This document shows, one piece after another, positions 45,926-61,083 of a DNA stretch of 64,000 bases; the first letter of the stretch is position 1; each line of letters begins with the position of its first letter. This stretch comes from Acidimicrobiales bacterium. Its GTDB lineage: Bacteria > Actinomycetota > Acidimicrobiia > Acidimicrobiales > Iamiaceae. The position numbers were made by a program, and so were the translations under genes. The DNA lies in the NCBI GenBank assembly GCA_046594195.1, contig JBKJPY010000030.1:5839-69838 (forward strand). Reading direction: 5' to 3'. Under the pieces are notes generated by a model that was not told the origin of the DNA, made no database searches, and worked only from the letters and a program-made list of their open reading frames with translations.

Positions 45926-46417
45926 ATGCCAGGACTCGAGGATCTCTACCGCGAGATCATCCTCGACCACTACCGCAACCCCCGGAACCGGGGCGAGCTG
46001 GACGCGCCTCCCGCCACGCGCACCGAGGGCTTCAACCCCCTGTGCGGCGATGAGATCGTCGTCTACCTGGACCTCGACGACGCCGGCGTGGTCGAAGACA
46101 TCCGCATCGGCGGCACCGGCTGCTCCATCAGCCAGTCGTCCGCTTCGATGATGTCGGCCGCGGTGAAGGGCAAGACCATCGCGGAGATCGAGGCGCTCAC
46201 CCACGCCTTCAAGGCGATGATGAGCATCCACGAGTCCTCGCTCGACGCCGATGGCGAGTCCGGCGAGGACCTCCCCGACGAGTTGCCCAAGGGTGTCAAG
46301 CTCGGCGACCTCGAAGCCCTGCGCGGCGTCGTGAAGTTCCCCGTCCGCATCAAGTGCGCCACGCTCGCCTGGAACACCCTCGCCGAAGGCATCGGCCAAA
46401 CCACCGCCAAGGCTTGA
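45926..46417 (+). CDS. sufU: SUF scaffold/sulfur acceptor SufU
   Basis: LYREIILDHY.NP, NPLCGD, GCSIS.SSASMM, and P.RIKCATL.W. Confidence 0.95.
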   Translation: MPGLEDLYREIILDHYRNPRNRGELDAPPATRTEGFNPLCGDEIVVYLDLDDAGVVEDIRIGGTGCSISQSSASMMSAAVKGKTIAEIEALTHAFKAMMSIHESSLDADGESGEDLPDELPKGVKLGDLEALRGVVKFPVRIKCATLAWNTLAEGIGQTTAKA

Positions 46418-46472
46418 CGAGTGCGTCCCTGAGCTGGACTTTATTCCCCCACCCCCAACAAAGTTGATGGTG

Positions 46473-46499
46473 GGAATAGCAGGTTCGCCCGTAGGGTTG
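46473..46499 (+). promoter_or_regulatory. SigR/SigH-type promoter of lon
   Basis: GGAAT-N18-GTTG. The -35 lies inside a hairpin spanning 46442-46478. Confidence 0.65.
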
Positions 46500-46531
46500 T
46501 CTGGGTCCCGCAAGACCCCGAGGAGCCCCTC

Positions 46532-49018
46532 ATGGCTGACACCACCCAACCCTCGACTGAGCTGCTGACGCTGCCCGTCCTCCCCCTGCCCAACGGCGTC
46601 GTGCTGCCCGGGATGGTGCTCACCATCGCCCTCGAGTCCGATGAGGCCAGGGCCGCGGTCGAGGCGACCGGCGACGACAACCGGCTACTGCTGGTGCCCC
46701 GACTCGACGGCCGCCACGCCGTCGTCGGCACCATCGCCACGATCGAATCCACCGGCGCCCTCCCCTCCGGCGTGCCGGCCCTCGTGGTCCGCGCCCACGA
46801 GCGGGCGCTGCTGCGCACCGGCGTCGCCGGCACCGGCACCGTCCTGTGGCTCCAGGCCGAACCCGTGCACCCCGAGACCACCGACGAAGCCAGGGAGCTG
46901 GCGTTGGAGCTGCGTGCCGGCTTCCGTGAGCTGTTCGAGGAGATGGGCGGCCGCCGTCTGGCCGAGGTCCTCCGCGGCCTCGACGAACCCGACGCCCTAG
47001 CCGACGCCGCCGGCTGGTGGCCCGACCTGTCGCTCGAGCGCAAGATCGAGCTGCTGGAGACGGTCGACGTCACCGAGCGGGTCCGCCGCGTCCTCGCCTG
47101 GGTCAAGGAGGCCCTGGCCGAACACGCCATGCAGGAGAAGATCCGCACCGAGGTGAGCGACGGGCTGGAGAAGAACCAGCGCGAGTTCATCCTCCGCCAG
47201 CAGCTGTCCGCCATCCGCAAGGAGCTGGGCGAACTGGACGACGATGGTGGCGAAGCGGCCGACTCCCCCGCCGCCTACCGCGAGAAGCTGGCCGACCGGG
47301 ACCTGCCGGCCGACGTCCGCACCGCAGCCGAGCGCGAAGTCGAGAAGCTCGAGCGCAGCTCGGAGCAGTCGCCCGAGCGCGGCTGGATCGTCACCTGGCT
47401 CGACACCGTCCTCGAACTGCCGTGGGGCGAGCACTCCACCGACAACCTCGAGCTGGCCAACGCCCGCGCCGTCCTCGACGCCGACCACACCGGCCTCGAA
47501 GAGGTCAAGGACCGCATCGTCGAGGAGCTCGCCGTGCGCAAGCTCCGCGCCGAGCGTGCCACGGAGGCCGCAGCCGAAGCCGAGCTGGTCGCCCTGCAGG
47601 ACGCCGCTGCGGCCAAGGTGCTCTCCGGCGAGGACGGCGACTCGGCCGACGGCGAGCCGGACGCCTCCGAACCCGAGCTGCCCAAGCCGGTTCGTCAGGG
47701 CACCATCCTCACCCTCGTCGGGCCTCCCGGCGTCGGCAAGACATCGCTCGGCGAGTCCATCGCCCGGGCCCTCGGCCGGTCCTTCGTGCGGGTCGCTCTC
47801 GGCGGCGTGCGCGATGAAGCCGAGATCCGTGGACACCGCCGCACCTACGTCGGCGCCCGCCCCGGACGCTTGGTCCGGGCCATGACCGAGGCCAAGACCA
47901 TGAACCCCGTGGTCCTGCTCGACGAGATCGACAAGGTCGGCAACGACTGGCGTGGAGACCCATCGGCCGCCTTGCTCGAGGTCCTCGACCCCGCGCAGAA
48001 CCACAGCTTCCGGGACCACTACCTGGAGGTCGACCTCGACCTGTCCGACGTGATCTTCATCGCGACGGCCAACCAGCTCGACACCATCGCGGGCCCGCTG
48101 CTGGACCGCATGGAGATCGTCAGCCTCGACGGCTACACCGAAGACGAGAAGGTCGCCATCGCCCGTGACCACCTGCTGGCCCGCCAGTTGGAGCGCGCCG
48201 GCATCAAGGCCGACGAGGTCACCATCACCGAGCCGGCGCTGCGGCGCATCGTCCGGGCCCACACCCGTGAGGCCGGCGTCCGCTCGCTCGAGCGGGCGCT
48301 CGCCAAGGTCCTGCGCAAGGTGGCCGCGAAGGTCGCCGAGCGCACCGGCGAGCCCGTCGTCGTCGACGAGGCAGAGGTGGCCGAGCTCCTCGGCCGCGAC
48401 CGCTTCCACGACACCGACATCGCCGACCGCACCTCCGTGCCCGGCGTGGTCACCGGCCTGGCCGTCACCGGCGCCGGCGGCGACGTCTTGTTCGTCGAGG
48501 CCACCGCGCTTCCGGCAGACCAGGGCGACGCCGAGAAGTCGGACTTGCTGGTCACCGGCCAGCTCGGCGACGTCATGAAGGAGTCGGCCCGCATCGCCCT
48601 CTCCTACGTCCGGGCCAACAGCGAATCGCTGGGCATCCCGGCCGGCGCCGATCGTCGGGCCGTGCACGTGCACTTCCCTGCTGGCGCCACCCCCAAGGAC
48701 GGGCCGTCGGCCGGCATCGCGATGAGCACCGCGCTGGTCAGCCTGTTCACGGGCCGGCCGGTCAAGAGCACGGTGGCGATGACGGGCGAGGTGACCCTCC
48801 AGGGCCACGTCCTGCCCATCGGCGGGGTCAAGCAGAAGGTGATGGCGGCCCACCGGGTCGGCATCCGGGAGGTCATCCTCCCGCTGCGCAACGAGGCCGA
48901 CATCGATGACGTGCCCGAGGCCATCCGAGACGACCTGACGATCCACTTCGCCAGGACCGTCGACGAGGTCATCGGCTGGGCCCTCGAGCCCGAGACGGCC
49001 AAGGCCGACGCCGCCTGA
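46532..49018 (+). CDS. lon: ATP-dependent protease La
   Basis: GPPGVGKTS, GHRRTYVGA.PG, LLDEIDK, the catalytic Ser in PKDGPSAG, and PIGGVKQK. Confidence 0.97.
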   Translation: MADTTQPSTELLTLPVLPLPNGVVLPGMVLTIALESDEARAAVEATGDDNRLLLVPRLDGRHAVVGTIATIESTGALPSGVPALVVRAHERALLRTGVAGTGTVLWLQAEPVHPETTDEARELALELRAGFRELFEEMGGRRLAEVLRGLDEPDALADAAGWWPDLSLERKIELLETVDVTERVRRVLAWVKEALAEHAMQEKIRTEVSDGLEKNQREFILRQQLSAIRKELGELDDDGGEAADSPAAYREKLADRDLPADVRTAAEREVEKLERSSEQSPERGWIVTWLDTVLELPWGEHSTDNLELANARAVLDADHTGLEEVKDRIVEELAVRKLRAERATEAAAEAELVALQDAAAAKVLSGEDGDSADGEPDASEPELPKPVRQGTILTLVGPPGVGKTSLGESIARALGRSFVRVALGGVRDEAEIRGHRRTYVGARPGRLVRAMTEAKTMNPVVLLDEIDKVGNDWRGDPSAALLEVLDPAQNHSFRDHYLEVDLDLSDVIFIATANQLDTIAGPLLDRMEIVSLDGYTEDEKVAIARDHLLARQLERAGIKADEVTITEPALRRIVRAHTREAGVRSLERALAKVLRKVAAKVAERTGEPVVVDEAEVAELLGRDRFHDTDIADRTSVPGVVTGLAVTGAGGDVLFVEATALPADQGDAEKSDLLVTGQLGDVMKESARIALSYVRANSESLGIPAGADRRAVHVHFPAGATPKDGPSAGIAMSTALVSLFTGRPVKSTVAMTGEVTLQGHVLPIGGVKQKVMAAHRVGIREVILPLRNEADIDDVPEAIRDDLTIHFARTVDEVIGWALEPETAKADAA

Positions 49019-49086: not shown

Positions 49087-49443
49087 TCAGTCCTGGAGGA
49101 AGGCGGCGACGCGGTCCTTGGGGCGGCCGATGATGGCGGCGTCGCCCTTCACGAGCACGGGGCGCTGCATGAGGCGCGGGTACTGGTCGAGCAGTTCGGC
49201 GACGGCCTTCGGATCGGTGTAGTCGCCCTCGATCAACCCCTGATCCTTGAAGAAGGAGTCCTTGCGGACGAGGTCCGCCGGCGGATCCTCGAGCTTGTCG
49301 ATGAGGTCCAGCAGCTCTTCGGCCGACAGCGGCGTCTTGATGTACTGGACGACATCGGCATCGATACCGGCGGCGTTCACCTCGTCGAGCGCATGCCGAG
49401 ACGTCGAGCAGTTCGGGTTGTGGAACAGGGTCACATCAGCCAT
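49087..49443 (-). CDS. ArsC-family (glutaredoxin-type) arsenate reductase-like protein
   Basis: FHNPNCSTSR, Y...P.S.EEL, LVRK, and P.LMQRPV..G..A.IGRP. Confidence 0.88.
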   Translation of the reverse strand: MADVTLFHNPNCSTSRHALDEVNAAGIDADVVQYIKTPLSAEELLDLIDKLEDPPADLVRKDSFFKDQGLIEGDYTDPKAVAELLDQYPRLMQRPVLVKGDAAIIGRPKDRVAAFLQD

Positions 49444-49473: not shown

Positions 49474-51165
49474 TCAGCCGCCGGGGCTGGGGTAGCTGGG
49501 TGGGACGGCATCGGCGGGGAGCTCGTCGTACATGGCGACGGCGCCCTTCTCGTCGAACACGTTGGCCGGGGTCTTGGGCATCTCGCCGGGCAGGTACCGC
49601 TTGCCGCCGTCGGCGGACATCATCATCCCCGTGCCCTGCTTCCCCTGCTCGTCGGGTCCCTCGAGGTCCGCGTTCCACCAGATGACCTGCATGTCGTCGA
49701 CGGCGTTGTAGTCGGTCGCACGAAACAGGCCGTGATCGCCCCACGACAGGCGCGGGTTGGTGGGCTTGCCGCCGCTCGGTGGGTAGGCGAAGAGTCCGTC
49801 GCGGAACGTCTCCGGCGTGAGCTTCGGCCCGGCCTGGTGGATGCCGGCCATCAGGATGCGGATCGGCTCGTTAATGACCCCCACCGTCTTCTTGGCGGCA
49901 GGCGCCCCGCCGTAGAACCACTGGTAGATCCGCCACGCCTCGCTCTGGTCTTGGGGCAACCGGGCCCCCAGGCTCGACACCCCGAACGCATGGGCCCACT
50001 GCCGCTGGTCGTAGAGGCGACCGAAGACCGTGGTGTCGGTGAGGACCGTCCCGGTGATGATCCACTCGGGGAAGTAGTTCTGGTCGGTCGCCGCCTTCGT
50101 CAGGTAGATCGGCATGATCGGGTCCCCGAGGAACACGACCGAGGTGACCTTGGCCTTCTTGAGCTGGTCGACCAGCACCCGCGCCTTCTCCGGCAGATCC
50201 GCGATGACCAGCTGGTACGTCAGGTTCACCGCCTGCTTGTAGCCGCGGCTGGCACCCTCCTGCGCGACCATGTCCTCGACCGCACCGAACACGGGTGGGT
50301 CCTGCTCGAAGTGCACGACGCCGAAGTTCCGCTTCTTGGACCGGATCTGCGGGCTGCCCGCGAACTCGGCCTTCTTGCCGAGCAGCCGCTCGATGATGAA
50401 GTCACCCACGTTCAACAAGAACTGCTCCGGGGTCTGCGCGTTGCCCCACAGGTACGGCGCATTCTTCTGGAGCGCCGAGTCCGGAAGCGCCAGGCCGCAC
50501 CCGACGCAGATCACCCCGCGCCGCGCCAGTTCCTCGGCGTACGCGCCCTCCTGAGCCGGGCCCCCGATCGAGGCGAACGCCTTGATCTCCTCGGCCACCT
50601 TCACCGCGTCGGCGCGGGCCGACGTCTCATCGGAGCCGGTGCCCTTCATCCGCACGACCTTGATCGTGCGGCCCCAGGTCTCATAGGTCTTGGCGAACAT
50701 CTCGAGGATCTTGTTGCTGGTGTCGGCGGAGTCCTCGGGAGAGTCGAGCTGGGCATTGAGGCTGGCCGCCAGATCATCGGCGGCGGCCACGTACGCCACG
50801 ACCGTGATCTCGGTGTCGGTCACGCCCTGGCCGCTGGCGGTGCGCTTCACGTCGGGGCGAGCGGCGACGCACGGCGGCGCGTACAGCGAGGGCACCTTGA
50901 TTCGTCCGGTGACCGGGTCGCAGGCGTCGCCGAAGTCGTACTGCTCGAGGTCCCCATTCTTCTTCGCGTCCTGGTAGTAGACGGGTAGCTGGGAGTTGGC
51001 CGACCCCGTCGTGCTCGGGGTGCCGGCCCCGCCGGACGTCACCTCCTCGGTGCCGGTGGACGAGATCCACGCCACCGCGCCGAGGGCGATCAGGATCACG
51101 GCGAGCGGCCCGAACCGGGCCACGATCGACGAACGAGGTGGTGGCGTGGCGGTGCGTGGGGTCAT
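49474..51165 (-). CDS. ABC-type substrate-binding protein (type 1 PBP) with N-terminal membrane anchor
   Basis: TM anchor, 'CDP...PPC', 'GVTDTEITV', and ETWGR.IK. ATGA overlap with the MFS-ABC fusion. Confidence 0.8.
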   Translation of the reverse strand: MTPRTATPPPRSSIVARFGPLAVILIALGAVAWISSTGTEEVTSGGAGTPSTTGSANSQLPVYYQDAKKNGDLEQYDFGDACDPVTGRIKVPSLYAPPCVAARPDVKRTASGQGVTDTEITVVAYVAAADDLAASLNAQLDSPEDSADTSNKILEMFAKTYETWGRTIKVVRMKGTGSDETSARADAVKVAEEIKAFASIGGPAQEGAYAEELARRGVICVGCGLALPDSALQKNAPYLWGNAQTPEQFLLNVGDFIIERLLGKKAEFAGSPQIRSKKRNFGVVHFEQDPPVFGAVEDMVAQEGASRGYKQAVNLTYQLVIADLPEKARVLVDQLKKAKVTSVVFLGDPIMPIYLTKAATDQNYFPEWIITGTVLTDTTVFGRLYDQRQWAHAFGVSSLGARLPQDQSEAWRIYQWFYGGAPAAKKTVGVINEPIRILMAGIHQAGPKLTPETFRDGLFAYPPSGGKPTNPRLSWGDHGLFRATDYNAVDDMQVIWWNADLEGPDEQGKQGTGMMMSADGGKRYLPGEMPKTPANVFDEKGAVAMYDELPADAVPPSYPSPGG

Positions 51166-54152
51166 GGGACCTCCGTGGGAGCAGCGGGTCCCTCATCGGG
51201 CCCCGAGCGGGTGAGAACGGCGCGATCGCCGCCCAGGTAGGACGCGACGACCTCGGGATGAGCGAGCACCGCGCCGGGCTCGCCGACGATCACCACCCGC
51301 CCTTGGTCGAGGGCGACGAGGCGATCGGAGATGCCGGCGATGAGGCTCATGTCGTGCTCGATGACGATCAGGCTGGCATCGAGCGCATCGCGGATCCGCA
51401 GCAAGAGCGGCGCCAGCGCCTCCGCCTCGCGCTGGGCGATGCCGGACGACGGCTCGTCGAGGAGCACCACCGACGGCTCGTGCGCCAGGACGCAGCCGAT
51501 GTCGACCACCCGGCGCGACCCGGTGGACAGCTCGCCGATGAACTTGGAGCGGAACGCCCCGAGGCCGAGCAGGTCGATGAGCTCGTCCACTCGATGGCGG
51601 GCAGCCGCCTCGCTCTCGACGAACGGGGGCAGACGCAGTGCGGCGTTGAACGGGTCGCGGACGTCGAGCCATCGCTCGAGGGCGACGAGCAGCGTCTCCT
51701 CCACGGTTAACGACGGGAAGAGCCGGGAATCCTGGAAGCTGCGCCCCAGGCCGAGCGCTGCTCGGCGGCTGGGGCGGGCATCGGTGAGATCGACGTCTCC
51801 GAGGCGGATGCGGCCGGCATCGGGCCGGGTGAACCCCGAAATCAGGTCGAGCAGCGTCGTCTTGCCGGCGCCGTTGGGTCCGATGAGGCCGACGACCTCA
51901 CGCGGGGCAACGGTGAACGAAACCTCGTCGACGGCGCGGATGCCACCGAAGGCCACGGACAGCTCCTCGAGGGCGAGGCCCGGACCGGCGGCCCCGTCAG
52001 CCGAAGCCGGCACCGGTTCCGACCGCACCGACACCGTCGGCGCGTCGCCGGCCAGCCCCGACGCGGCGCCCTGGAAGAACACCGAGCGGAGGACGTCGGG
52101 CCGGTCCAGCAGGTCCGCAGTGGGGCCGTGAAAGCGGATCTCACCCTTCTCCATGAAGTACGCGGTGTCGGCCACGGTCAGGGCCACGTTCACCGACTGC
52201 TCGACCAGGATGATCGTGGTCCCCCGGTCCCGCAGGTCCCGCACCACACCGAGCAGTTGCTCCACCACCACCGGAGCCAGCCCCAGCGACAGCTCGTCGA
52301 TCATCAGCAGCTTCGGCCGGTTCAGGAACGCCATGGCCAGCGCCAGCATCTGCTGCTGGCCGCCGGACAGGTCGGCGGCGGCATCGTCGGCCCGGCTCAC
52401 CAGCACCGGAAACAGGGCCAGCGCCTCGTCGACGCGCGAGGCGCGCAGGGCGGGGTCGTGGCGCAGCATCCAGCCGGCCGCACGGAGGTTCTCCGCCACG
52501 GTGAGCGACGGGAAGACGCCCTGCCCGCCCGGGACCTGGGCGATGCCGAGCGGAGCGATCTCCTCGGGCGGGGCATGGGTGATGTCGCGCCCGTCGAAGA
52601 CGATGGCACCGCGGTCGGCGGGCGCCACGCCGGAGATGGCCTTGAGCAACGTCGACTTGCCGGCACCGTTGGTGCCGAGCAGGGCGATGATCTCGCCCTC
52701 GGACACATCGATGTCGATCCCGAAGAGCACCCGCACGTCGCCGTAGGCCACCTGCACGTTGCGGACGCTGAGCAGCGGCAGCTTGCCGGCGGCGCGGTCC
52801 TGGAGCATCTGCGCCCGGGTGGCGGCGCCGGTCCAGACCTGGGCGATGTCGTCGTCGATCACCTTGCCGACCGAGGCGATGACGAGGCCGCCGATGAAGA
52901 ACACCGGGACCATGACCACCATCCCCCAGCGGAACCCGTGGTGGTCGCCGATCCAGCCGATGAGCGGGAGGACCAGGAGCCCAGGCAGCACCCACAGGGC
53001 GCCGATGGAAAAGCCCATCGACCGCGCCCTCGGCGGGATGGCCAGCGAGAGCGACGACAGCACGCCGGGGCCGACCACCACGAGCGCGGCCGAGATGATG
53101 CAGTTGGCGACCACCGCGACCAGCACGTTCGGGGCGGCGGCGAACACGAGCGCCATCACGCAGGCAACGCCGGCGGCCGCGCCCAGCACGCCGAAGATCT
53201 TCGACGCTCCGTTGGTCAGCGCTCGGCTGGTGAGCCGAGCACCGATGACGACGCCGCCCAGCTCGACGATCTGCACCGGGATCAGCGCCCACGCCCGTTC
53301 CCACGCATCGAGGCCGAACACCTCTTCGTACATGAGCGACGCAAGCGAGATGAACCCGATGATCGACGCAGCGAGGAACGGCAGCGCGATGAAGATGCGC
53401 CGGAGGCTGCGGATGGTCCACACCATGCGGAGCGACTCGGCGAAAGAGGGCGGCAGCTCGTCGGTCTCCGTGTCGATGCCGAGATCGGCGGCCTCCCGCT
53501 CGAAGTGGCCGCGGCCCGGATCGCGCAGCCGCAGTGCGAGCACCACGAGGATGATCGTGGGGAAGGCGAAGACGATGAACGGCGCCCGCCAGGTGAACAG
53601 GGCGGCCAGCCCGGCGCCGATGAGGAACCCGAAGATCTGACCGACGCTGTTCGCCGCCCGGTGGATCGAGTACACCCGGGGGCGCGAACGAATCGGGTAG
53701 TAGTCGGCCAGGAGGCTGTTGTGGGTGGGAAACACCACGCCCTGGCCGACGGCCGCGCCCGAACGGGCGAGCACCAGCATCCACACGGTGAATGCCAGGC
53801 CGGTGGTCAAGGAGAAGAACGCCCAGACGACCGCCCCGATGAGGGCGATGGCGACGCGGTTGCGGCGATCGGCGAAGTGGGCGATCGGCACGGTCAGCAG
53901 CAGGGCCGCCGCACCCGCGAGGGTGACCACCGCGAGGATGCCGGTGTTGGTGAGCCCGAGGGAATCCCGGATGTCGGGTAGCAGCACCAGGTAGGCCGCC
54001 CGGTCGAGCTCGTCGGTCATGTTGAGCCCGAACAGGATGAGCAGCGGGTACCACCCCGCCTTGCCGAGCCACTCGGGGCGCCACCGCGACGCAGCCGGCG
54101 CCGGCTCGGACGCCCCTGGCGGCGTGGCCTCGGGAACCGCGGTGGTCGTCAT
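51162..54152 (-). CDS. Fusion: spinster-like MFS transporter + LivF-type ATPase + LivG-type ATPase (996 aa)
   Basis: MFS motifs ELDR..LPDI, FADRRNR, LLADYYP..SR.R. NBD1: GTNGAGKST, LSGGQQQM, MIDE. NBD2: GPNGAGKTT, LSTGSRR, LLDE. One uninterrupted frame. Confidence 0.9.
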   Translation of the reverse strand: MTTTAVPEATPPGASEPAPAASRWRPEWLGKAGWYPLLILFGLNMTDELDRAAYLVLLPDIRDSLGLTNTGILAVVTLAGAAALLLTVPIAHFADRRNRVAIALIGAVVWAFFSLTTGLAFTVWMLVLARSGAAVGQGVVFPTHNSLLADYYPIRSRPRVYSIHRAANSVGQIFGFLIGAGLAALFTWRAPFIVFAFPTIILVVLALRLRDPGRGHFEREAADLGIDTETDELPPSFAESLRMVWTIRSLRRIFIALPFLAASIIGFISLASLMYEEVFGLDAWERAWALIPVQIVELGGVVIGARLTSRALTNGASKIFGVLGAAAGVACVMALVFAAAPNVLVAVVANCIISAALVVVGPGVLSSLSLAIPPRARSMGFSIGALWVLPGLLVLPLIGWIGDHHGFRWGMVVMVPVFFIGGLVIASVGKVIDDDIAQVWTGAATRAQMLQDRAAGKLPLLSVRNVQVAYGDVRVLFGIDIDVSEGEIIALLGTNGAGKSTLLKAISGVAPADRGAIVFDGRDITHAPPEEIAPLGIAQVPGGQGVFPSLTVAENLRAAGWMLRHDPALRASRVDEALALFPVLVSRADDAAADLSGGQQQMLALAMAFLNRPKLLMIDELSLGLAPVVVEQLLGVVRDLRDRGTTIILVEQSVNVALTVADTAYFMEKGEIRFHGPTADLLDRPDVLRSVFFQGAASGLAGDAPTVSVRSEPVPASADGAAGPGLALEELSVAFGGIRAVDEVSFTVAPREVVGLIGPNGAGKTTLLDLISGFTRPDAGRIRLGDVDLTDARPSRRAALGLGRSFQDSRLFPSLTVEETLLVALERWLDVRDPFNAALRLPPFVESEAAARHRVDELIDLLGLGAFRSKFIGELSTGSRRVVDIGCVLAHEPSVVLLDEPSSGIAQREAEALAPLLLRIRDALDASLIVIEHDMSLIAGISDRLVALDQGRVVIVGEPGAVLAHPEVVASYLGGDRAVLTRSGPDEGPAAPTEVP

Positions 54153-56293
54153 CGTGGCGACCCCACCGGCTCATCGGCTGCGGCGCCGTCAAGGCCCTGC
54201 GGCCGGTCCGGCAGTGCCACCTTGATGGCCTCCGGCGCTTCGTCGCCCGCAGTGTCGGCAAGGAGGCTGGCGACCACGATCCCCCTGCGGGCGGCAAGGC
54301 GGCGCAGCAGCGCGTCGCGACCCCGGTACACGAGGTTGCCGAGGCCGCCAGGGAGGATCATCAAGACGAGCAGCACCCCGACCGCAGACGGCAGCAAGTT
54401 CCACGGCGCCGGCAGGAACCACTTGCCGCCGTTGAGGTAGAGCGCTCCGAAGACGGCGCCGGCCAGCGAGCCCAGACCGCCCACCACAGCTGCGGTGAAG
54501 ATCCCGAGGCTCTCCGACGCAACGAACGGGCCCTCGTCGTAGCCCCGGTTCACGTGGACCAGCAAGCACCCGGCCACCGCCGCCAAGAAGCCAGACAGCG
54601 CGAACGCGGTGAGCTTCGCCCGCACCACGGGGATGGAGTACGCCGCTGCGCCCCGCTCGTTGTCGCGCACGGCGATGAGCGCCCGTCCGGTGCGACTGCG
54701 CCGGATGCCGGCCACCGCGAGGAAGGCCAGGACGACCACGCCCAGGACCAGCTCGTACATGGCCGCCTCGCTGGACAGGTCCACGTGGCGGAACAGCGGC
54801 CGTGCCCCCACCGCCTCCTTCGGGATCCAGTCCTGCTCCTTGCGGTTCAGTAGGAAGTTGCTGCACGCGAGCGAGAACGTGAGCGTGGTGACCGCGAGGT
54901 ACAAGCCGGGTTGTCGCAGCGCTGGCAGCCCGACGATCACCGCGACCACCGCACCCGCGGCGCCGGCCGCGAGCAGGGCCACGACGATGTCGACCTTCCA
55001 CGTCACCGTGGCCACTGCACCCACCGCCGCACCCACGGCCACGAACGCCATCTGGCCGAGCGACACCTGACCCGCCCACCCTGTCAGGACCACGATCGAC
55101 AGGGCGATCAGGGCGTAGACGGCGACGGTCGAGGCCTTGAGCTCCTGGCTGGGCTGCAGCACGAGCGGCAGCGCCGCCGCGACGGCGACCAGCACGATCG
55201 GGATCAGCACCCGCAACCACCGCACGAGGGGCAGGCGACGGAGCTCGGCCGGGACGGGGCGGACCTCGTCGGCGGCGTGAAGGGTGACCCCGTCGACATC
55301 CTGACGGCGAGTTGACACCCGACGAAGGGCCAGCACGACGAGGAGCACGACGGCGAGCACGAGGTAGATCCGGGCCACGTCGCTCGGGTACTTGGCCGAG
55401 ACGCCCTGGTCGAGGATCCGCAGCGCGATCGCCGATGCCGCGACCGCAGCCAGGTTGTCCAGCCGACCGATGAGCAGCGCCGAGAGGGCGAAGACCAGGG
55501 CGCCGGCACTCAGCGCGCCCGCACCGCTGTAGCCGAACATCGACACCTGGAGGAACAGACCGGCGAACGACAGCGCCGCCGCCAGGCCCCACACGAGGGT
55601 CTGCAGCCTGCGGACCGGAATGCCGAGCAGCGCCGCCCGGTCGGTGCGGTCTGCGCTTGCCCGCAGCGCGACGCCCACGTCGGTGCCACGCAGGAACAGG
55701 ACCAGGCCGAGCAGGACCAGCGGCGCCACGATCATGGCGAGGATCTCGCTCCCCCGGAAGATCTGGGTCCCGATCTCGAGCTGGGCATGGAACGGCTGCG
55801 GGAGCCGACCCCGCAGGAAGACCTCCCGCTTGTCCTCGGGCCACATCCGAGGGATGAGGAGGCTGCACACGATGAGGAGCTGGGACAGGCCGATGGTGGC
55901 GACCGTCAACAGGAGCCGCGGCGAGCGGAAGAAGCGCCGGACGATCGCCAGTTCGACCACGACGCCGAGCAGGATCGATGCCGCCAGACCGAGGACCAGG
56001 CCGAGCAGGTACGGCAGGCCCGAGGCCAAGATGAGCCCGGCCGCCAGGGTGACCGGCACCGTCCCGAGGTCCGCCTGGGCGAAGTTCAAGATGCGGTTCG
56101 ACCGGTAGATCAGCGCCAGGCCGAGGGCCACGAGCGCCGTGAGCATGCCGACGACGACGCCGAGCACCCACGTTCCCCGTCCGATCGGGAACACGAGGAG
56201 CTGGAGGGCGATGATGCCGATGGCGGGGATGAAGGGCCCAAGCGGGCGCAGCACGTCCGGCAGCTGGAGATCAAGGTCGCGGCGACGACTCAT
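54149..56293 (-). CDS. Fused LivH-LivM type ABC permease
   Basis: SNRILNFAQA, 'GVALRASA....AALLGIP', GWAGQVSLGQ, and 'GRALIAVRDNE..A'. Confidence 0.88.
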   Translation of the reverse strand: MSRRRDLDLQLPDVLRPLGPFIPAIGIIALQLLVFPIGRGTWVLGVVVGMLTALVALGLALIYRSNRILNFAQADLGTVPVTLAAGLILASGLPYLLGLVLGLAASILLGVVVELAIVRRFFRSPRLLLTVATIGLSQLLIVCSLLIPRMWPEDKREVFLRGRLPQPFHAQLEIGTQIFRGSEILAMIVAPLVLLGLVLFLRGTDVGVALRASADRTDRAALLGIPVRRLQTLVWGLAAALSFAGLFLQVSMFGYSGAGALSAGALVFALSALLIGRLDNLAAVAASAIALRILDQGVSAKYPSDVARIYLVLAVVLLVVLALRRVSTRRQDVDGVTLHAADEVRPVPAELRRLPLVRWLRVLIPIVLVAVAAALPLVLQPSQELKASTVAVYALIALSIVVLTGWAGQVSLGQMAFVAVGAAVGAVATVTWKVDIVVALLAAGAAGAVVAVIVGLPALRQPGLYLAVTTLTFSLACSNFLLNRKEQDWIPKEAVGARPLFRHVDLSSEAAMYELVLGVVVLAFLAVAGIRRSRTGRALIAVRDNERGAAAYSIPVVRAKLTAFALSGFLAAVAGCLLVHVNRGYDEGPFVASESLGIFTAAVVGGLGSLAGAVFGALYLNGGKWFLPAPWNLLPSAVGVLLVLMILPGGLGNLVYRGRDALLRRLAARRGIVVASLLADTAGDEAPEAIKVALPDRPQGLDGAAADEPVGSPR

Positions 56294-56399
56294 GAGCAGC
56301 AGACGACTCCCCTGTACAGACGTTCTGATGGTGCTGACACCGAGCGACCCCTGCCCGGAAACTTCGTGCACCCTAGCTGCAAGTTGTTGGGCGCGTTCG

Positions 56400-56684
56400 T
56401 CAAACCCCGGTCGCCGCAGCGCAGGCATCGATGGCCGCTGCGAGGCGCGTGTCGCGGGTTGTGAGCCGATCCACGTCGTGGCTGGTCAGCTCGATCACCA
56501 CGCGGTTCCAGGAGTTCGACCAGTCCGGGTGGTGGTTCATCCGCTCGGCTTCCACGGCGACGCTAGTCATGAACGCCCACGCCCCGGCGAAGTCGCGGAA
56601 GACGAACTCCTTTCGCAGGACGTGACCGACGACGGCCCATCCCTCCGGCACGTCGAAGCTGGGATCCGGTTCCCGATCGCTCAT
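56400..56684 (-). CDS. phhB: Pterin-4-alpha-carbinolamine dehydratase
   Basis: LRKEF.F.DF..A..FM..VA..AE..NHHPDW.N.WN.V...LTSHD. Confidence 0.9.
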   Translation of the reverse strand: MSDREPDPSFDVPEGWAVVGHVLRKEFVFRDFAGAWAFMTSVAVEAERMNHHPDWSNSWNRVVIELTSHDVDRLTTRDTRLAAAIDACAAATGV

Positions 56685-56686
56685 CG

Positions 56687-58690
56687 TCAACCTCCTGCCC
56701 ACGTGGGGACGACCTCGGCGAGTTCCTGCGCGCTCAGCACGCGCAGTTCGAACACATCATCCTCGTTCACGATGTCGGCGGGAAGGGCAGCCTGCAACTC
56801 GGCGACTTGATCCGGGTCGAACTCAGGTGACTCGTAGTACCCGTCGGCGAGCAGGCCGAGGAACGCCTGGTCCGTGAGTACCGCCTCCGGTTCGGTCCCG
56901 ATCGCGGCCATCACGCCCCGCACGTAGTCGCGCACCTCAGGCGCATACCGGGCCGCGAGCAACGGCTCGGCCCGATCGCTCGGGGACGCGGGCGCCGAGC
57001 GCGCCGCTTCGGCCAGCGGCTCCACCAGGGGCCGCAGGTCCTCGTTCATGTCGACGCGTGCGATCGTGCGGCCCGGTCCATCGGGGACGTCGCCGCGCCC
57101 CGAGACGAGCACCATCACCAGGTCCCCGGGGTCGTCGCCGGGCTCCAGCACCCGCTTGGCCCCCCACGCTGGCACCCGCTGCTCGGGCAGCACCGTGGGG
57201 TGGCCGTTCGCTTCCAACTGCAGCGCGACCGCCGACCCCGCGGCCAGCACCGCCGACCGACCGCGCAGGACGATCGTCACCCGCTCCGCTCCTGTCCGAT
57301 CCGCCTCGGCGACGGCCGCATCGCTCATCGTCCGCATCGCGTCGAAGCCCGCCTGGTCGCGCCGTTCGTCGTCGAAGCCGGCGGTGGCGACGGCGCCGAT
57401 CGCCGGGATCACCATGAGCACCACGGCGAGTGCCGGAGCGAGGCGGGGCAGCGCGGCCGGCACGCGCCGGTCGCGACGAGCGAGCAGGGCTCGCGCTGCC
57501 GAGGCGCCCGCCCAACCGAGGGCTATCCACGACAGCCAGGCCACGACGAAGGCCCACCGGTAGAAGTTGACCCGGAAGGCCTCGACCGAATCCGGCACGG
57601 CGCTGCCGTTGGAGGTGCCGGCAGCCGCCAGCACCAGGGCCGTGAGGGCGAGCAGGGAGAGGGTGCGGCGACGCGTCCACATGACGACGACGGTGGCCAC
57701 CAGGGCGGCATAGCTCGCGACGGCGGTGACCACCTCGAGCGCGGACAGCGGGCCGTTGAAGAAGGTGTCGCCGCGCAGGTCCGATCGGAGCAGCAGCGGC
57801 GGGAACCCCACGGCACGGATCGCCTGACGCAGCGCCGGCACCCAGCCCAGCGGCACGGTGTCGGAGGTGCGCGCGTAGTGGATGATCGCCGAGAGGTTGC
57901 CGTCATCGCCCGTGACCTGCTGCCACAGGACCGGAGCCCACAGGACGAGCACGACACCCACGGCTCCCAGCGCCCACGGCCAGAGGCGCGGGCCGCTGGT
58001 CTGACTGCGACGGCGCCGCACGAGGGACCGCGCGACCGCGGCGGCAACCGCGAGGGCGATGAGCCCACCCGCCGGCAGGGCGATCGCCAGGTGCTGCTGC
58101 ACGACCCACGAGGCAAACACCGCACCGAGGGGCAGGAGCCGGATGTCGCCGTCGGCCACCGCCCAGGCCAGCGCCGCGAGGGCCAGCAGCGCCATCGCCC
58201 CGGCATTGGAGGAGATGGGGTCGCTCAAGATCGCAGTCCCCTCGCTCCACAGGACGCCGGCCATCAACACCATCGCCCAGCCGGCGACGGTGGGCCCGGC
58301 ACGGCGCAGCACCACCCAGGCGGCCACGAGCACCCCGGCGAGGTTGAACGCCAGCGCGCCGACGATCATCCCGACGGCCGGACCGAGGACCCGCAGCGGG
58401 ATGGCCAGCCAGTAGAACTCGATCGGCCCCGGATGCGCGGTGCCCGCCTCGGGGCCGTAGAGGTGGCTCGTGCTCGGCTGGCCGACCAGAGGACGTTCGG
58501 CGGTGAACACGTCGTGGGCTCGCAGCCCGATGAGGGCGTCGTCGCCACTTGGGATCCACTGCACATGGATGGCCCGCACCGCGCTGGCACCAAAGGGCAC
58601 GAGCACGAGCACCACCATCGCCGCGGCCACCAGCGCCTGGCGACGGGACAGGTCTCGCAGCCGGTGCACGGGCGCGAAGCCTACGGCCAC
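56687..58690 (-). CDS. Multi-TM protein, possibly a GT-C (ArnT/PMT-like) glycosyltransferase
   Basis: An acidic pair in the first loop (SGDDALI), HPGP..FYWLA, many TM helices, and a C-terminal soluble domain. Confidence 0.5.
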   Translation of the reverse strand: MAVGFAPVHRLRDLSRRQALVAAAMVVLVLVPFGASAVRAIHVQWIPSGDDALIGLRAHDVFTAERPLVGQPSTSHLYGPEAGTAHPGPIEFYWLAIPLRVLGPAVGMIVGALAFNLAGVLVAAWVVLRRAGPTVAGWAMVLMAGVLWSEGTAILSDPISSNAGAMALLALAALAWAVADGDIRLLPLGAVFASWVVQQHLAIALPAGGLIALAVAAAVARSLVRRRRSQTSGPRLWPWALGAVGVVLVLWAPVLWQQVTGDDGNLSAIIHYARTSDTVPLGWVPALRQAIRAVGFPPLLLRSDLRGDTFFNGPLSALEVVTAVASYAALVATVVVMWTRRRTLSLLALTALVLAAAGTSNGSAVPDSVEAFRVNFYRWAFVVAWLSWIALGWAGASAARALLARRDRRVPAALPRLAPALAVVLMVIPAIGAVATAGFDDERRDQAGFDAMRTMSDAAVAEADRTGAERVTIVLRGRSAVLAAGSAVALQLEANGHPTVLPEQRVPAWGAKRVLEPGDDPGDLVMVLVSGRGDVPDGPGRTIARVDMNEDLRPLVEPLAEAARSAPASPSDRAEPLLAARYAPEVRDYVRGVMAAIGTEPEAVLTDQAFLGLLADGYYESPEFDPDQVAELQAALPADIVNEDDVFELRVLSAQELAEVVPTWAGG

Positions 58691-58703: not shown

Positions 58704-59507
58704 TCAGCCGGCGAACGGATCAGCGAAGGGGTCGGCCAACGGATCCGCCGTCGCGGGGACCGACGGCTCGTCCTCGCCCGCCGGCAGGTACGCCGCGTAG
58801 CCGTCGGTCTCGAGCTCGTCGGCCAGCTCCGGACCGCCGGTCTTCACGATCCGGCCCTTGGCCAAGATGTGGACCACATCAGGCTTCAGCTCGCGCAGCA
58901 GGCGCGTGTAGTGCGTGATGGCGAGCACGCCGAGGCCGTCCTCCGTGGTGGCCTGCTCGACCCGTCGGGAGCAGGCCCGCAGCGCGTCGACGTCCAGGCC
59001 CGAGTCGAGCTCGTCGAGGATGGCGATCTTGGGTGCCAGCACGCCCAGCTGGAGGGTCTCGTTGCGCTTCTTCTCGCCGCCGGACAGGTCCACGTTGAGG
59101 TCCCGGCCGAGGAAGCGCTCGGCGAACCCGATGCGCTCGGCTTCGGCGACCATCGTGGTGCGGAGCCCGTCGGTGCTCCGGCCGCCGGCGGTGAACGACG
59201 CCGAGAGCACGGCTTCGACCGACACGCCAGGGACCTCGGTCGGGTACTGCAGGGCGAGGAAGAGCCCGGCCTGGGCTCGCTCCCAGGTGTCCATCGCCAA
59301 CACGTCGACCCCGTCGAGCGTGACCGAACCGCCGGTCACCTCGTAGCCGGGGCGGCCGAGGATCACGTGCGACAGCGTGGACTTGCCCGATCCGTTCGGA
59401 CCCATGACGGCGTGCACCTCGCCCGAGCGGACGACGAGGTCGATCCCCAGGAGGATCTCCTTGCCGTCGACCCCGGCACGCAGGCCTTCGATCACCAGTT
59501 CAGACAT
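58704..59507 (-). CDS. sufC: Fe-S assembly ATPase SufC (copy 2)
   Basis: MGPNGSGKST, FLALQYP, LSGGEKKRNE, LDELDSGLD.DAL, and THY.R. Confidence 0.93.
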   Translation of the reverse strand: MSELVIEGLRAGVDGKEILLGIDLVVRSGEVHAVMGPNGSGKSTLSHVILGRPGYEVTGGSVTLDGVDVLAMDTWERAQAGLFLALQYPTEVPGVSVEAVLSASFTAGGRSTDGLRTTMVAEAERIGFAERFLGRDLNVDLSGGEKKRNETLQLGVLAPKIAILDELDSGLDVDALRACSRRVEQATTEDGLGVLAITHYTRLLRELKPDVVHILAKGRIVKTGGPELADELETDGYAAYLPAGEDEPSVPATADPLADPFADPFAG

Positions 59508-59839
59508 CAGGAGGTCCCTTCGGCGTCATCGATCTCGACGAAGACCTCGCCGGCGTCCACCCATGCCCGGTACACCGGCACCGGCCGGGTGGCGGGGAAC
59601 ACGTCGGGCTCACCGGTCTCGAGCGAGAACGAGCTGCCGTGCTTCCAGCACTCGATGTGGCACGTCTCGGCGTCGACCTCGCCCTCGGACAAGGAGATGT
59701 CCTGGTGGGTGCAGGTGTCGCCGATGACGTAGACCGATCCGTCGATGCGGATGACCGCGAGCCGGTGGCCGCGGACGTCGAAGCGCTGGGCCTCGCCGTC
59801 CACGAGCACCTCGAGGGGGGCGATCGGGTGGACGCTCAT
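59507..59839 (-). CDS. Rieske-type ferredoxin
   Basis: CTH...ECWKHG (CxH/CxxH). Overlaps the sufD stop and the sufC start. Confidence 0.92.
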   Translation of the reverse strand: MSVHPIAPLEVLVDGEAQRFDVRGHRLAVIRIDGSVYVIGDTCTHQDISLSEGEVDAETCHIECWKHGSSFSLETGEPDVFPATRPVPVYRAWVDAGEVFVEIDDAEGTS

Positions 59840-61083
59840 CGCAGGTCCTCCGCCACGCGGTCGAGCTTCTCGGAGATGCGCTGGCCGACCTCGGCCACCA
59901 GGGCGTCGCCGGGAAGCTGACGGACGACCTCGTCGAAGAAGCCGGCGACGATCAGCCGGTCCGCGATGGTGGGCGGGACGCCGCGGCTCTCCAGGTAGAA
60001 GCGCTGCTCCGGATCGACCGGGCCGACGGTGGAAGCGTGGCTGCAGCGCACGTCGTTGGTCTCGATCTCCAGGTTGGGGACCGACTCGGCCCAGGCGTCG
60101 TCGGAGAGCTTGACGTTGCGGTTGGTCTGGAAGGCGTTGGTGCCCCGGGCGTCCTTGCTCACCTTGATGAGGCCCGTGTACACCGACCGGCTGCGCCCGC
60201 CGACCGCACCCTTGAAGAGCAGGTTGGAGGTGGTGTCGGGCGCATCGTGGTGCTGGAACGTCCGGAAGTCGAGGGTCTGGTCGCCGTCGCCGAAGTAGGC
60301 GGCGAGCAGGTCCCCGGTGCCGCCGCGGCCCGAGAGGCGGCAGTCGGTGCGCACCCGGGCGTAGGCGCCGCCTAGGCCGATGAGCCCGACGCGCAGGTGC
60401 GCCTCCTGCCCGACGTCGGCAACGAGGGACCCGAGCTGCCAGGCCGACGAGCCGAGCTGCTGGATGGCGACGAAGTCCAGCCGGCCTCCCCGCTCCACCC
60501 GCAGCTCGGTGAGCGGGACGGAGAGCAGATCGTCGTCGGTGGAGGTGGTGCGGTCGATGACGGCGGCCGATGCGCCTGCGCCCACGAGGACGACGAGCCG
60601 GGGGAACCCGGCTGCGCCGGAACCGGCGAGGTGGGTCCCCACCACGAGCGGTTCGGTCAGTTGTACGCCCCGGGGCACGGTGACGACCACCGGATCGGCG
60701 CTGAAGGCGTCGTTGAGGGCGCCGAACACGTCGGGGCCGCCCTCGGAGACCGATCCGATGCCGGTGGTGTCGTCGGTCAGGTCCGCGGCCCGACGGACCG
60801 AAACGCCCTTGGTCGCCCACTCCTCCGGGATGGAGAGGTCGACCGTAACGGCATCGACGGTGGGCGTGAAGGATTCCAGGTCCAGTTCGGCGATCCGGCT
60901 GTAGCGCCAGACCTCCTCCTGGGCGCTCGGCAGCGTCGACGCGGCGAACCCATCGGCGGCGGCGGCTCGACGACCCTGCAGCCACTCCGGTCCGGCCAGC
61001 GCCGTGGCCGCATCAACAGTGAAAGCGCTCAGGGGAACGGGCCTTTGCTCGAAGGAGGACGAGGGTAGAACGCAGGGGCTCAC
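59836..61083 (-). CDS. sufD: Fe-S assembly protein SufD; start uncertain (possibly CTG 61032)
   Basis: EEVWRYS, FRTFQHH.AP.T.S..LFKG, AFQTNRN..LS, P.LEIE..DV.CSHASTVG, and FYL.SRG. Confidence 0.92.
   Translation of the reverse strand: MSPCVLPSSSFEQRPVPLSAFTVDAATALAGPEWLQGRRAAAADGFAASTLPSAQEEVWRYSRIAELDLESFTPTVDAVTVDLSIPEEWATKGVSVRRAADLTDDTTGIGSVSEGGPDVFGALNDAFSADPVVVTVPRGVQLTEPLVVGTHLAGSGAAGFPRLVVLVGAGASAAVIDRTTSTDDDLLSVPLTELRVERGGRLDFVAIQQLGSSAWQLGSLVADVGQEAHLRVGLIGLGGAYARVRTDCRLSGRGGTGDLLAAYFGDGDQTLDFRTFQHHDAPDTTSNLLFKGAVGGRSRSVYTGLIKVSKDARGTNAFQTNRNVKLSDDAWAESVPNLEIETNDVRCSHASTVGPVDPEQRFYLESRGVPPTIADRLIVAGFFDEVVRQLPGDALVAEVGQRISEKLDRVAEDLR

Follow-up and report, generated by a model that had tools for sequence, protein, structure and literature searches.

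A Spinster-like MFS carrier fused to both ATPases of a Liv-type ABC importer in a conserved actinobacterial operon

Introduction

[quoted passage not shown] Here we describe an operon that joins the two. It lies in a 64,000-nucleotide (nt) stretch of DNA from an Acidimicrobiales bacterium of the Iamiaceae (GenBank assembly GCA_046594195.1, contig JBKJPY010000030.1, positions 5,839 to 69,838 of the forward strand; hereafter the window, whose own numbering is used throughout). Between the gene of a fused LivH+LivM permease and that of a substrate-binding protein (SBP), a single gene encodes a protein of 996 amino acids (aa) in which a Spinster (Spns)-like MFS carrier precedes a LivF-type and a LivG-type nucleotide-binding domain (NBD1 and NBD2). 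The arrangement was first noticed in an inspection of the letters and open reading frames (ORFs) alone (the sequence-only reading), and it raises two questions: whether the single chain is real and, if so, what a secondary carrier does on the ATPases of an importer that has a permease of its own.

Results

The fusion is encoded by one conserved reading frame

Three co-directional ORFs were found on the minus strand, at 54149..56428 (759 aa), 51162..54152 (996 aa) and 49474..51165 (563 aa), exactly as in the ORF list from which the sequence-only reading had taken them, the uninterrupted 996-aa frame included. The first is the permease gene, which we count from M46, the start at 56293 that the same reading had used; this gives 714 aa at 54149..56293 and leaves no overlap with the pterin-dehydratase gene upstream. 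The second encodes the fusion protein (MFS, LivF-type NBD and LivG-type NBD by Pfam, NCBIfam and an AlphaFold2 (AF2) model), and the third a divergent type I (LivJ-like) SBP. Both junctions are ATGA overlaps, as had been claimed, and were read directly off the DNA: the permease stop and the fusion start share 54149..54152 (...CCA CGA TGA / ATG ACG), and the fusion stop and the SBP start share 51162..51165 (...CCA TGA / ATG ACC). Stop/start overlaps of this kind are typically the arrangement of translationally coupled subunits.

The window has a G+C content of approximately 70% and contains long spurious antisense ORFs, and for this reason the reading frame was judged by homology and not by ORF length. 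One such ORF, of 617 aa, lies opposite the fusion gene at 52128-53981 on the plus strand; it is typical for 70% G+C and is not a gene. This composition, together with the metagenomic origin of the DNA, gives some ground for supposing that a frameshift, a misassembly or a read-through has falsely joined an MFS gene to livF/livG, and we looked for the same chain in other genomes. A search of 5.8 billion proteins with the fusion protein yielded more than 120 full-length homologues (about 970-1060 aa) at 59-92% identity, every one with both PF07690 and PF00005. Identity was 91% for Aquihabitans daechungensis, 74% for Aquihabitans sp. G128 and 66% for Iamia majanohamensis, and further homologues were found in many metagenome-assembled genomes (MAGs) of the Ilumatobacteraceae and Microthrixaceae. 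By these matches, the window comes from an Aquihabitans-like bacterium of the Acidimicrobiia. The three-gene operon is present in the complete genomes of I. majanohamensis and Aquihabitans sp. G128, and on the I. majanohamensis chromosome the genes stand in identical order between other flanks. Scanning one genome per species with an alignment of the MFS part gave at least 538 related stretches, and the best 80 loci among them, all from Acidimicrobiia, were parsed into ORFs and domains. Every one of these loci whose contig spans all three genes has the permease, a stop-free MFS-NBD1-NBD2 ORF and the binding protein in this order. Exceptions to the single ORF were confined to three loci, in long-read MAGs with obvious frameshifts.

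The window sequence is contained completely in a soil metagenome run, and Logan contigs from soil metagenome, probably from the same sample as the window, match 51855-54106, a segment that includes both inter-domain junctions, with neither differences nor gaps (0 of each). The sequence-only reading had pointed to 52000-52900 as the segment in need of independent support and had feared a stop or frameshift between the domains; the contigs cover that segment and contain neither. Apparent 'joints' in the read layout were cross-matches of ABC paralogues at the Walker motifs, not deletions. In public soil-metagenome contigs, strain-level micro-variation was seen at 51189-51201, consisting of substitutions and a compensated indel (a 1-nt deletion and a 1-nt insertion near 51193-51197); it falls in the disordered C-terminal tail of the fusion, and the frame is intact elsewhere.

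Conservation of the single ORF in other genomes is stronger evidence against an artefact than the contig coverage. Since complete isolate genomes keep the ORF, as do all complete loci among the 80 species, the contigs cross both junctions with no indel, and the connector between MFS and NBD1 is itself conserved, the probability of a false join is practically negligible and we rejected it. The single-chain MFS-NBD1-NBD2 fusion is real.

The MFS domain resembles Spinster carriers but lacks one key residue

The N-terminal part of the fusion (aa 35-430; 52863..54050, minus strand) was assigned as a Spinster-like, 12-helix MFS domain from the MFS_1 match, the PDB matches and the AF2 model, which bears out the earlier description of it as complete. 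Pfam placed MFS_1 at aa 43-384 (E 1.5e-39). The AF2 model of the fusion (predicted local distance difference test (pLDDT) 80, predicted template-modelling score (pTM) 0.66) has 12 transmembrane (TM) helices within aa 35-430, with motif A between TM2 and TM3, and this topology would place both termini of the MFS in the cytoplasm, and the NBDs with them. The best PDB sequence match was HnSpns of Hyphomonas (6e8j), at E 1.4e-14 with the single sequence and 1.3e-26 with the family profile. With the profile, SPNS1 came second, followed by EfpA, QacA, EmrB and SPNS2; NorA was also weaker than HnSpns. The match to Spns was strongest in the N-terminal half.

Residue roles in HnSpns have been described for Asp41, Arg42, Arg122, the group Asp87/Arg91/Asp142 and Glu129, the last being called the 'master protonation switch' (Dastvan et al., PMC9440201). 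In an alignment of 42 close homologues, Asp41 corresponds to D50 (42/42), Arg42 to R51 (35/42) and Arg122 to R130 (42/42), and the motif-A relay corresponds to D95/R99/D150, which is kept in all 42 and is invariant in the broad set too. TM1 carries D47 as an extra invariant acidic residue. The equivalent of Glu129 is Q137 (codon listed at 52741-52743), the position being Gln in 32, Asn in 5, Lys in 4 and Leu in 1 of the close homologues; in the broad set, free-standing forms included, it is R, K, Q or S, and it is acidic nowhere in the clade. As far as sequence can tell, the label 'Spinster-like' is justified by the overall similarity and by most of the signature residues, with this one defining functional residue missing. 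Antiporter motif C in TM5 (GxxxGPxxGG) has the clade consensus GxxxGPLxAG and reads GQIFGFLIGAG in the window, where Pro is replaced by Phe.

In pairwise comparison, homologues share on average 62-66% identity in the MFS halves and 72-77% in the NBDs, but 29% in the inter-NBD linker. The MFS, conserved almost at the level of the NBDs, is under purifying selection and appears functional. Given this conservation and the invariant switch residues, a degenerate MFS that serves as a mere membrane anchor is unlikely.

The missing glutamate bears on the possibility that the MFS performs no net transport and is regulatory or structural, either as a sensor of a ligand or of the proton-motive force (a transceptor) that gates the ATPase, in analogy to the domains appended to MalK, MetN, NrtC and CmpC, or as a scaffold for LivHM and the hydrophobic helix of the SBP. 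An equivalent of Glu129 that is never acidic in the clade counts in its favour, and the absence fits a sensor, as well as an MFS powered by ATP (considered below), slightly better. However, the free relatives also have no Glu, so that the loss is not specific to the fusion and cannot discriminate between mechanisms. Conservation extends over the whole MFS, cavity-lining residues of TM1 and TM4 included, and the known regulatory domains of NBDs are soluble and C-terminal, not N-terminal with 12 TM helices. On the other side, a rigid link to the NBD is what an allosteric regulator needs, and the SBP helix, with its invariant G19-P20 and conserved cytoplasmic tail, suggests a specific intramembrane partner. 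Taking both sides together, we consider an MFS of this regulatory or structural kind unlikely.

A fixed-length connector joins the MFS to NBD1

TM12 is linked to the first strand of NBD1 by a connector helix at aa 431-458 (52779..52862, minus strand; VIDDDIAQVWTGAATRAQMLQDRAAGKL). In the AF2 model, a continuous helix at aa 432-454 runs straight into the first NBD1 β-strand at aa 459. The segment has equal length in 42/42 sequences and is conserved in sequence. The invariant D435 and the Walker A lysine (K499) are 64 residues apart in every sequence compared from subfamily A, to which the fusion of the window belongs (119/119), and 64-69 residues apart in 120 members of a divergent subfamily (B). 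In contrast, the Ala/Gly/Pro-rich linker between NBD1 and NBD2 (aa 692-725; 51978..52079, minus strand) is 24-85 residues long among homologues and is predicted to be disordered and flexible (pLDDT <50). In the model, the connection of MFS and NBD1 therefore looks rigid, unlike the floppy linker between the NBDs.

NBD1 (aa 459-691; 52080..52778, minus strand) is of the LivF/UrtE type, with the motifs GTNGAGKST, LSGGQQQ, LLMIDE and VEQS, and NBD2 (aa 726-975; 51228..51977, minus strand) is of the LivG/UrtD type, with GPNGAGKTT, LSTGSRR, VLLDEP and IEHD. Pfam matched ABC_tran twice (E 7e-61) and BCA_ABC_TP_C weakly, the latter at aa 957-976. By NCBIfam, NBD1 (461-690) was nearest to UrtE/LivF and NBD2 (726-975) to UrtD/LivG, and the best PDB sequence match of NBD1 was 1ji0 (E 3e-55). 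None of the Walker A, Q-loop, signature, Walker B and switch motifs varies across the 42 homologues, and both ATP sites are apparently catalytic. The earlier statement that both NBDs have intact Walker A/B and signature motifs holds for the Walker motifs and for NBD1, which has LSGGQ and the LivF-typical VEQ switch; the signature of NBD2, LSTGSRR, is a conserved LivG-type variant and not the canonical LSGGQ. When the whole fusion model was submitted to Foldseek, all matches were driven by the NBDs (OppD/DppD, EttA, P-gp), and none of the matched structures spans an MFS plus an NBD.

A rigid connector of fixed length, together with the missing canonical proton switch, would also suit an MFS powered by ATP, in which NBD dimerisation drives the rocker switch through the connector, or the SBP feeds the MFS, and LivHM is mainly a stator that couples the NBDs. 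One locus in which an MFS relative is adjacent to an SBP homologue and has no fused NBD points the same way. Against this, the attachment is limited to the C-domain of the MFS and to a single NBD, and LivHM is complete and conserved, so that the ABC pathway is presumably used. We know of no precedent and consider this mechanism very unlikely. That an MFS fold is here powered or gated by ATP, whether through a connector that transmits NBD closure or through ligand handed over by the SBP, we consider quite improbable; to our knowledge, no such hybrid, with two pathways on one motor, has been described for the ABC or MFS superfamily.

The importer has its own permease and binding protein

The permease contains two BPD_transp_2 domains (PF02653; E 5.9e-51), in agreement with the fused LivHM proposed before. 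Its LivH-like half lies at roughly 55334-56167 (NCBIfam UrtB/LivH-like at aa 88-365) and its LivM-like half at roughly 54320-55195 (UrtC/LivM-like at aa 412-703), both on the minus strand and with NCBIfam scores far under the equivalog cut-offs. No solved structure with sequence similarity to the permease was found. Among the best 80 related loci, all those that include the region upstream of the fusion have the permease there.

The SBP (563 aa; 49474..51165, minus strand) gave no Pfam match itself; many of its homologues carry PF13458. Foldseek matched its AF2 model (pLDDT 86) to type I/LivJ-like binding proteins at E~1e-14 and 12-15% identity, with aromatic-acid SBPs of R. palustris on top, followed by 4n03 (an actinobacterial fatty-acid SBP), LIVBP and UrtA. 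It is about 150-200 aa larger than these fold neighbours, with extra N- and C-terminal elements, and C82, C99, C220 and C223 are invariant. Its N-terminal hydrophobic helix (aa 14-34; nt 51064-51126) has the invariant G19-P20, a conserved cytoplasmic tail and a variable linker after it, and no lipobox Cys was found in it. The protein had been described as a membrane-anchored binding protein. The binding-protein part of this description is supported by the LivJ-like fold; judged from the sequence, the helix could be an uncleaved anchor or a Sec signal peptide with a possible site between AVA and W, and anchoring is likely. With permease, two NBDs and SBP all present, the MFS is indeed an addition to a complete ABC system.

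From its sequence features, the system qualifies by architecture as an ABC importer of the HAAT family (TC 3.A.1.4) and not as a Liv or Urt equivalog. It has in common with LivJ/K-LivHMGF and UrtABCDE the two BPD_transp_2 domains, the LivG- and LivF-type ATPases, the type I (Peripla_BP_6-fold) SBP and the encoding in one operon. It differs from them in that the permeases are fused, the ATPases are fused in the order F-then-G behind a 12-TM MFS, and the SBP is longer and has an N-terminal hydrophobic helix. The NCBIfam scores were below the equivalog cut-offs for LivG (294<362), LivF (266<441), LivH (39<379), LivM (53<366), UrtB (68<250), UrtC (64<296) and UrtD (300.8<304.1). The score for UrtE was above (312.5>285.8), but as a sum over two NBD stretches in the fusion it is no evidence of equivalog membership. 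Because of these scores, and since the SBP is only 12-15% identical to solved SBPs, a transporter of urea (Urt) or of Leu/Ile/Val (Liv) was rejected.

The architecture recurs in a second subfamily and has split and free relatives

The MFS part was also compared with 1.84 billion cluster representatives, 274 of which matched at E<1e-30. Three architectures were found among them: MFS-NBD1-NBD2 (about 940-1034 aa), MFS-NBD1 (about 675-755 aa) and free MFS (about 420-500 aa). Triple fusions reach down to 31% MFS identity, where a second subfamily has the same gene set in the order SBP-permease-fusion (fusions P0355 and P0298). P0355 has more than 100 full-length relatives, among them some in MAGs named Mycobacteriales, Jatrophihabitantaceae, Frankiales/Frankiaceae and Acidimicrobiales, so that no fewer than two classes of Actinomycetota have the architecture. 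In all fused forms, those with MFS-NBD1 only included, the partner of the MFS is a LivF-type NBD. The three genes make up a real transport system of the Actinomycetota, one that is anciently conserved.

Protein lengths in the library of representatives need care, as illustrated by P0252, an apparently free-standing MFS of 496 aa that is really a truncated fusion; its end switches into ...GRASCRERV and looks like an assembly chimera. Permease-MFS 'fusions' that also occur in this library (P0305, P0307 and others) have the look of frameshifted or fragmentary gene calls and were left out of account. One Acidimicrobiales MAG (JBFJNI01) holds two paralogous systems, a triple fusion (L037) and a split one (L087:556-6337). 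The latter consists of a permease, an MFS-NBD1 protein of 711 aa and, from a separate gene, a LivG-type protein of 495 aa whose low-complexity tail is rich in lysine and alanine; this locus contains no binding-protein gene.

Free MFS relatives (about 40% identity) were found in non-Liv contexts, namely with MarR/TetR and an ABC exporter, with a patatin-like lipase, and in an Atu/acyl-CoA-carboxylase cluster. At L082:2625-5490, a free MFS relative (490 aa, 43-45% identity) is followed 8 nt on by a homologue of the long binding protein; upstream lie the tail of a LivG-type gene, at a distance of 2.3 kb, a helix-turn-helix regulator and a weak match to LNS2 (lipin-like phosphatase). This is the only case seen of an MFS and SBP pair with no fused ATPase. 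The sequence-only reading had named separate encoding of the domains in relatives as a point that would tell against it. Close relatives have the single ORF (complete loci among the best 80), and the domains are separate only in distant relatives, as MFS-NBD1 with a separate NBD2 or as free MFS; we read the split and free forms as a Rosetta-stone pattern and not as a refutation.

The split and free forms give some weight to an explanation by co-localisation only, in which an autonomous, proton- or gradient-driven Spns-type carrier is fused for co-expression, 1:1 stoichiometry or co-targeting, with no conformational cross-talk; import of a metabolite together with export of a by-product would be an example. 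Free homologues at about 40% identity with no Liv genes nearby are in accordance with it, as are the intact switch motifs of the MFS. A helical connector of fixed length, as opposed to the variable length of the other linker, is not predicted by simple tethering, and the constant LivF-type partner and an operon make-up kept across two deep subfamilies also speak against it. We regard co-localisation alone as rather unlikely.

A fatty-acid desaturase gene is the only recurrent conserved neighbour across 81 loci. In 16/81 of them (Iamiaceae, Microthrixaceae and Acidimicrobiaceae) it stands in divergent orientation close upstream of the LivHM gene: L001 (4434-5624), L005, L013-L015, L018, L021, L022, L024, L026, L027, L029, L038, L043, L044 and L080.

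Genes around the operon in the window

The flanks of the operon are housekeeping genes, with NifU/IscU-like and Lon protease genes at 45926-49018 and a Suf cluster (SufC, Rieske ferredoxin, SufD/B) at 58704-61083. The SufC gene accounts for an extra upstream 'NBD' match in close relatives. An ArsC/Spx-family gene (49087-49443, minus strand) follows the binding-protein gene after 30 nt in the same orientation, and co-transcription is possible; in other genomes it is outside the conserved module. A gene at 56687-58690 (minus strand) stands between sufC and the gene of pterin-4a-carbinolamine dehydratase (56400-56702), with which it shares 16 nt; it encodes a polytopic membrane protein of 667 aa that gave no Pfam match.

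Discussion

Comparison with known systems

With the Spns proteins (HnSpns 6E8J, MsSpns, SPNS1, SPNS2; TC 2.A.1.49), the MFS shares the Asp-Arg pair of TM1, the motif-A charge relay, the Arg of TM4 and the 'S-x-x-x-DYYP' and 'REPxRG' motifs. It differs from them in the replacement of Glu129 by Q/N/K/R and in the fusion of its C-terminus to ABC ATPases. Another actinobacterial MFS protein, Rv1410 (P55) of mycobacteria, shares its operon with LprG, an extracytoplasmic ligand-binding protein, and the two act together on lipids (PMC10576003, PMC6519032). The joint encoding of MFS and binding protein is alike, and the Rv1410 homologue 8pnl was among the profile matches of the MFS, but Rv1410-LprG has no ABC component and LprG is a lipoprotein of another fold, so that the analogy is functional only. 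M. tuberculosis OppD/DppD, the top Foldseek matches to the fusion model, resemble the fusion in having two NBDs on one chain of an actinobacterial importer. They belong to the Opp/Dpp family and bear Fe-S/C-terminal extensions in place of an attached membrane domain.

Additional domains on importer ATPases are well known: the C-terminal domains of MalK, MetN and ModC and the SBP-like domain of NrtC modulate their ATPases. In CmpABCD, too, an extra domain on the NBD chain modulates the ATPase (PMC13287603). These appended domains (MalK, MetN, ModC, NrtC/CmpC) are soluble and C-terminal, whereas the extra domain here is a complete N-terminal 12-TM transporter. None of Rv1410-LprG, OppD/DppD and the ATPases with regulatory domains combines an MFS with ABC ATPases. 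We found no description of an MFS-ABC(Liv) fusion in the full-text literature (including PMC3924187), which is consistent with the earlier statement that no example has been characterised; TCDB and InterPro were outside the scope of this search, and a curated note may exist. Databases already contain the fusion proteins, under generic names such as 'MFS transporter' and 'branched-chain amino acid transport system ATP-binding protein'.

A candidate mechanism

Among the explanations, we tentatively prefer a working Spns-type pathway that is conformationally coupled to the SBP-dependent importer and handles an amphipathic compound, although the coupling is inferred and we would put this reading somewhat below an even chance. 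The MFS would be a working second translocation pathway and not a dead anchor, as its 62-66% conservation, the invariant Spns residues and the free homologues in efflux- or lipid-like contexts suggest. The rigid connector would tie the inward/outward switching of the MFS to the open/closed cycle of the NBD dimer, so that one ATP-driven cycle gates two pathways reciprocally. Through the first, the compound delivered by the SBP would be taken up via LivHM; through the second, the same or a metabolically linked amphipathic compound would be exported, flipped or extracted from the membrane via the Spns-type domain.

As judged from several hints, the system probably handles not a branched-chain amino acid but a hydrophobic or amphipathic compound (fatty-acyl, aromatic-acid or lysolipid-like): the fold neighbours of the SBP bind aromatic or fatty acids, lysolipids or lipophilic drugs are the substrates of the Spns and EfpA relatives, a desaturase gene is divergently upstream in 16/81 loci, and one free MFS relative (L082) directly precedes an SBP homologue.

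Several observations weigh against the coupled pathway and its amphipathic substrate. With the Glu129 switch absent, the MFS may work unlike the characterised Spns proteins. A single NBD on one half of the MFS, the C-domain, is an awkward geometry for driving a rocker switch, and the fixed length of the connector could reflect packing constraints with no functional coupling. No RNA run containing the fusion gene was found among the public runs. As for the substrate, the ligand class cannot be safely deduced from the SBP, because it shares only 12-15% identity with its fold neighbours, and the genes that flank the operon here (Lon, ArsC-family, Suf, pterin dehydratase) provide no clue. The desaturase synteny, a weak lipid hint, is not seen in the window and may be gene order kept by descent. 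The rigid connector, the conserved Spns relay residues and the missing Glu129 constrain the mechanisms that the sequence-only reading had put forward (coupled import and export, flipping, channelling or regulation) but do not decide between them.

Significance

A complete ABC importer and a complete MFS carrier are joined and kept under selection in hundreds of actinobacterial species, with the ATP sites and most of the MFS switch residues intact; the architecture is real, ancient and widespread, and surprising to transport specialists. The finding also flags a large protein family as mislabelled, as 'MFS transporter' or as 'branched-chain amino acid ATP-binding protein'. If the two halves are independent, the fusion is still a Rosetta-stone link that places both transporters in a shared pathway. 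If they communicate, it would be a natural system for ATPase gating of an alternating-access carrier and a model for the coordination of uptake with efflux or flipping of one metabolite, and it would give a physiological context to the poorly understood bacterial Spinster relatives. An MFS powered or gated by ATP, if true, would truly combine primary with secondary transport and be a categorically new mechanism.

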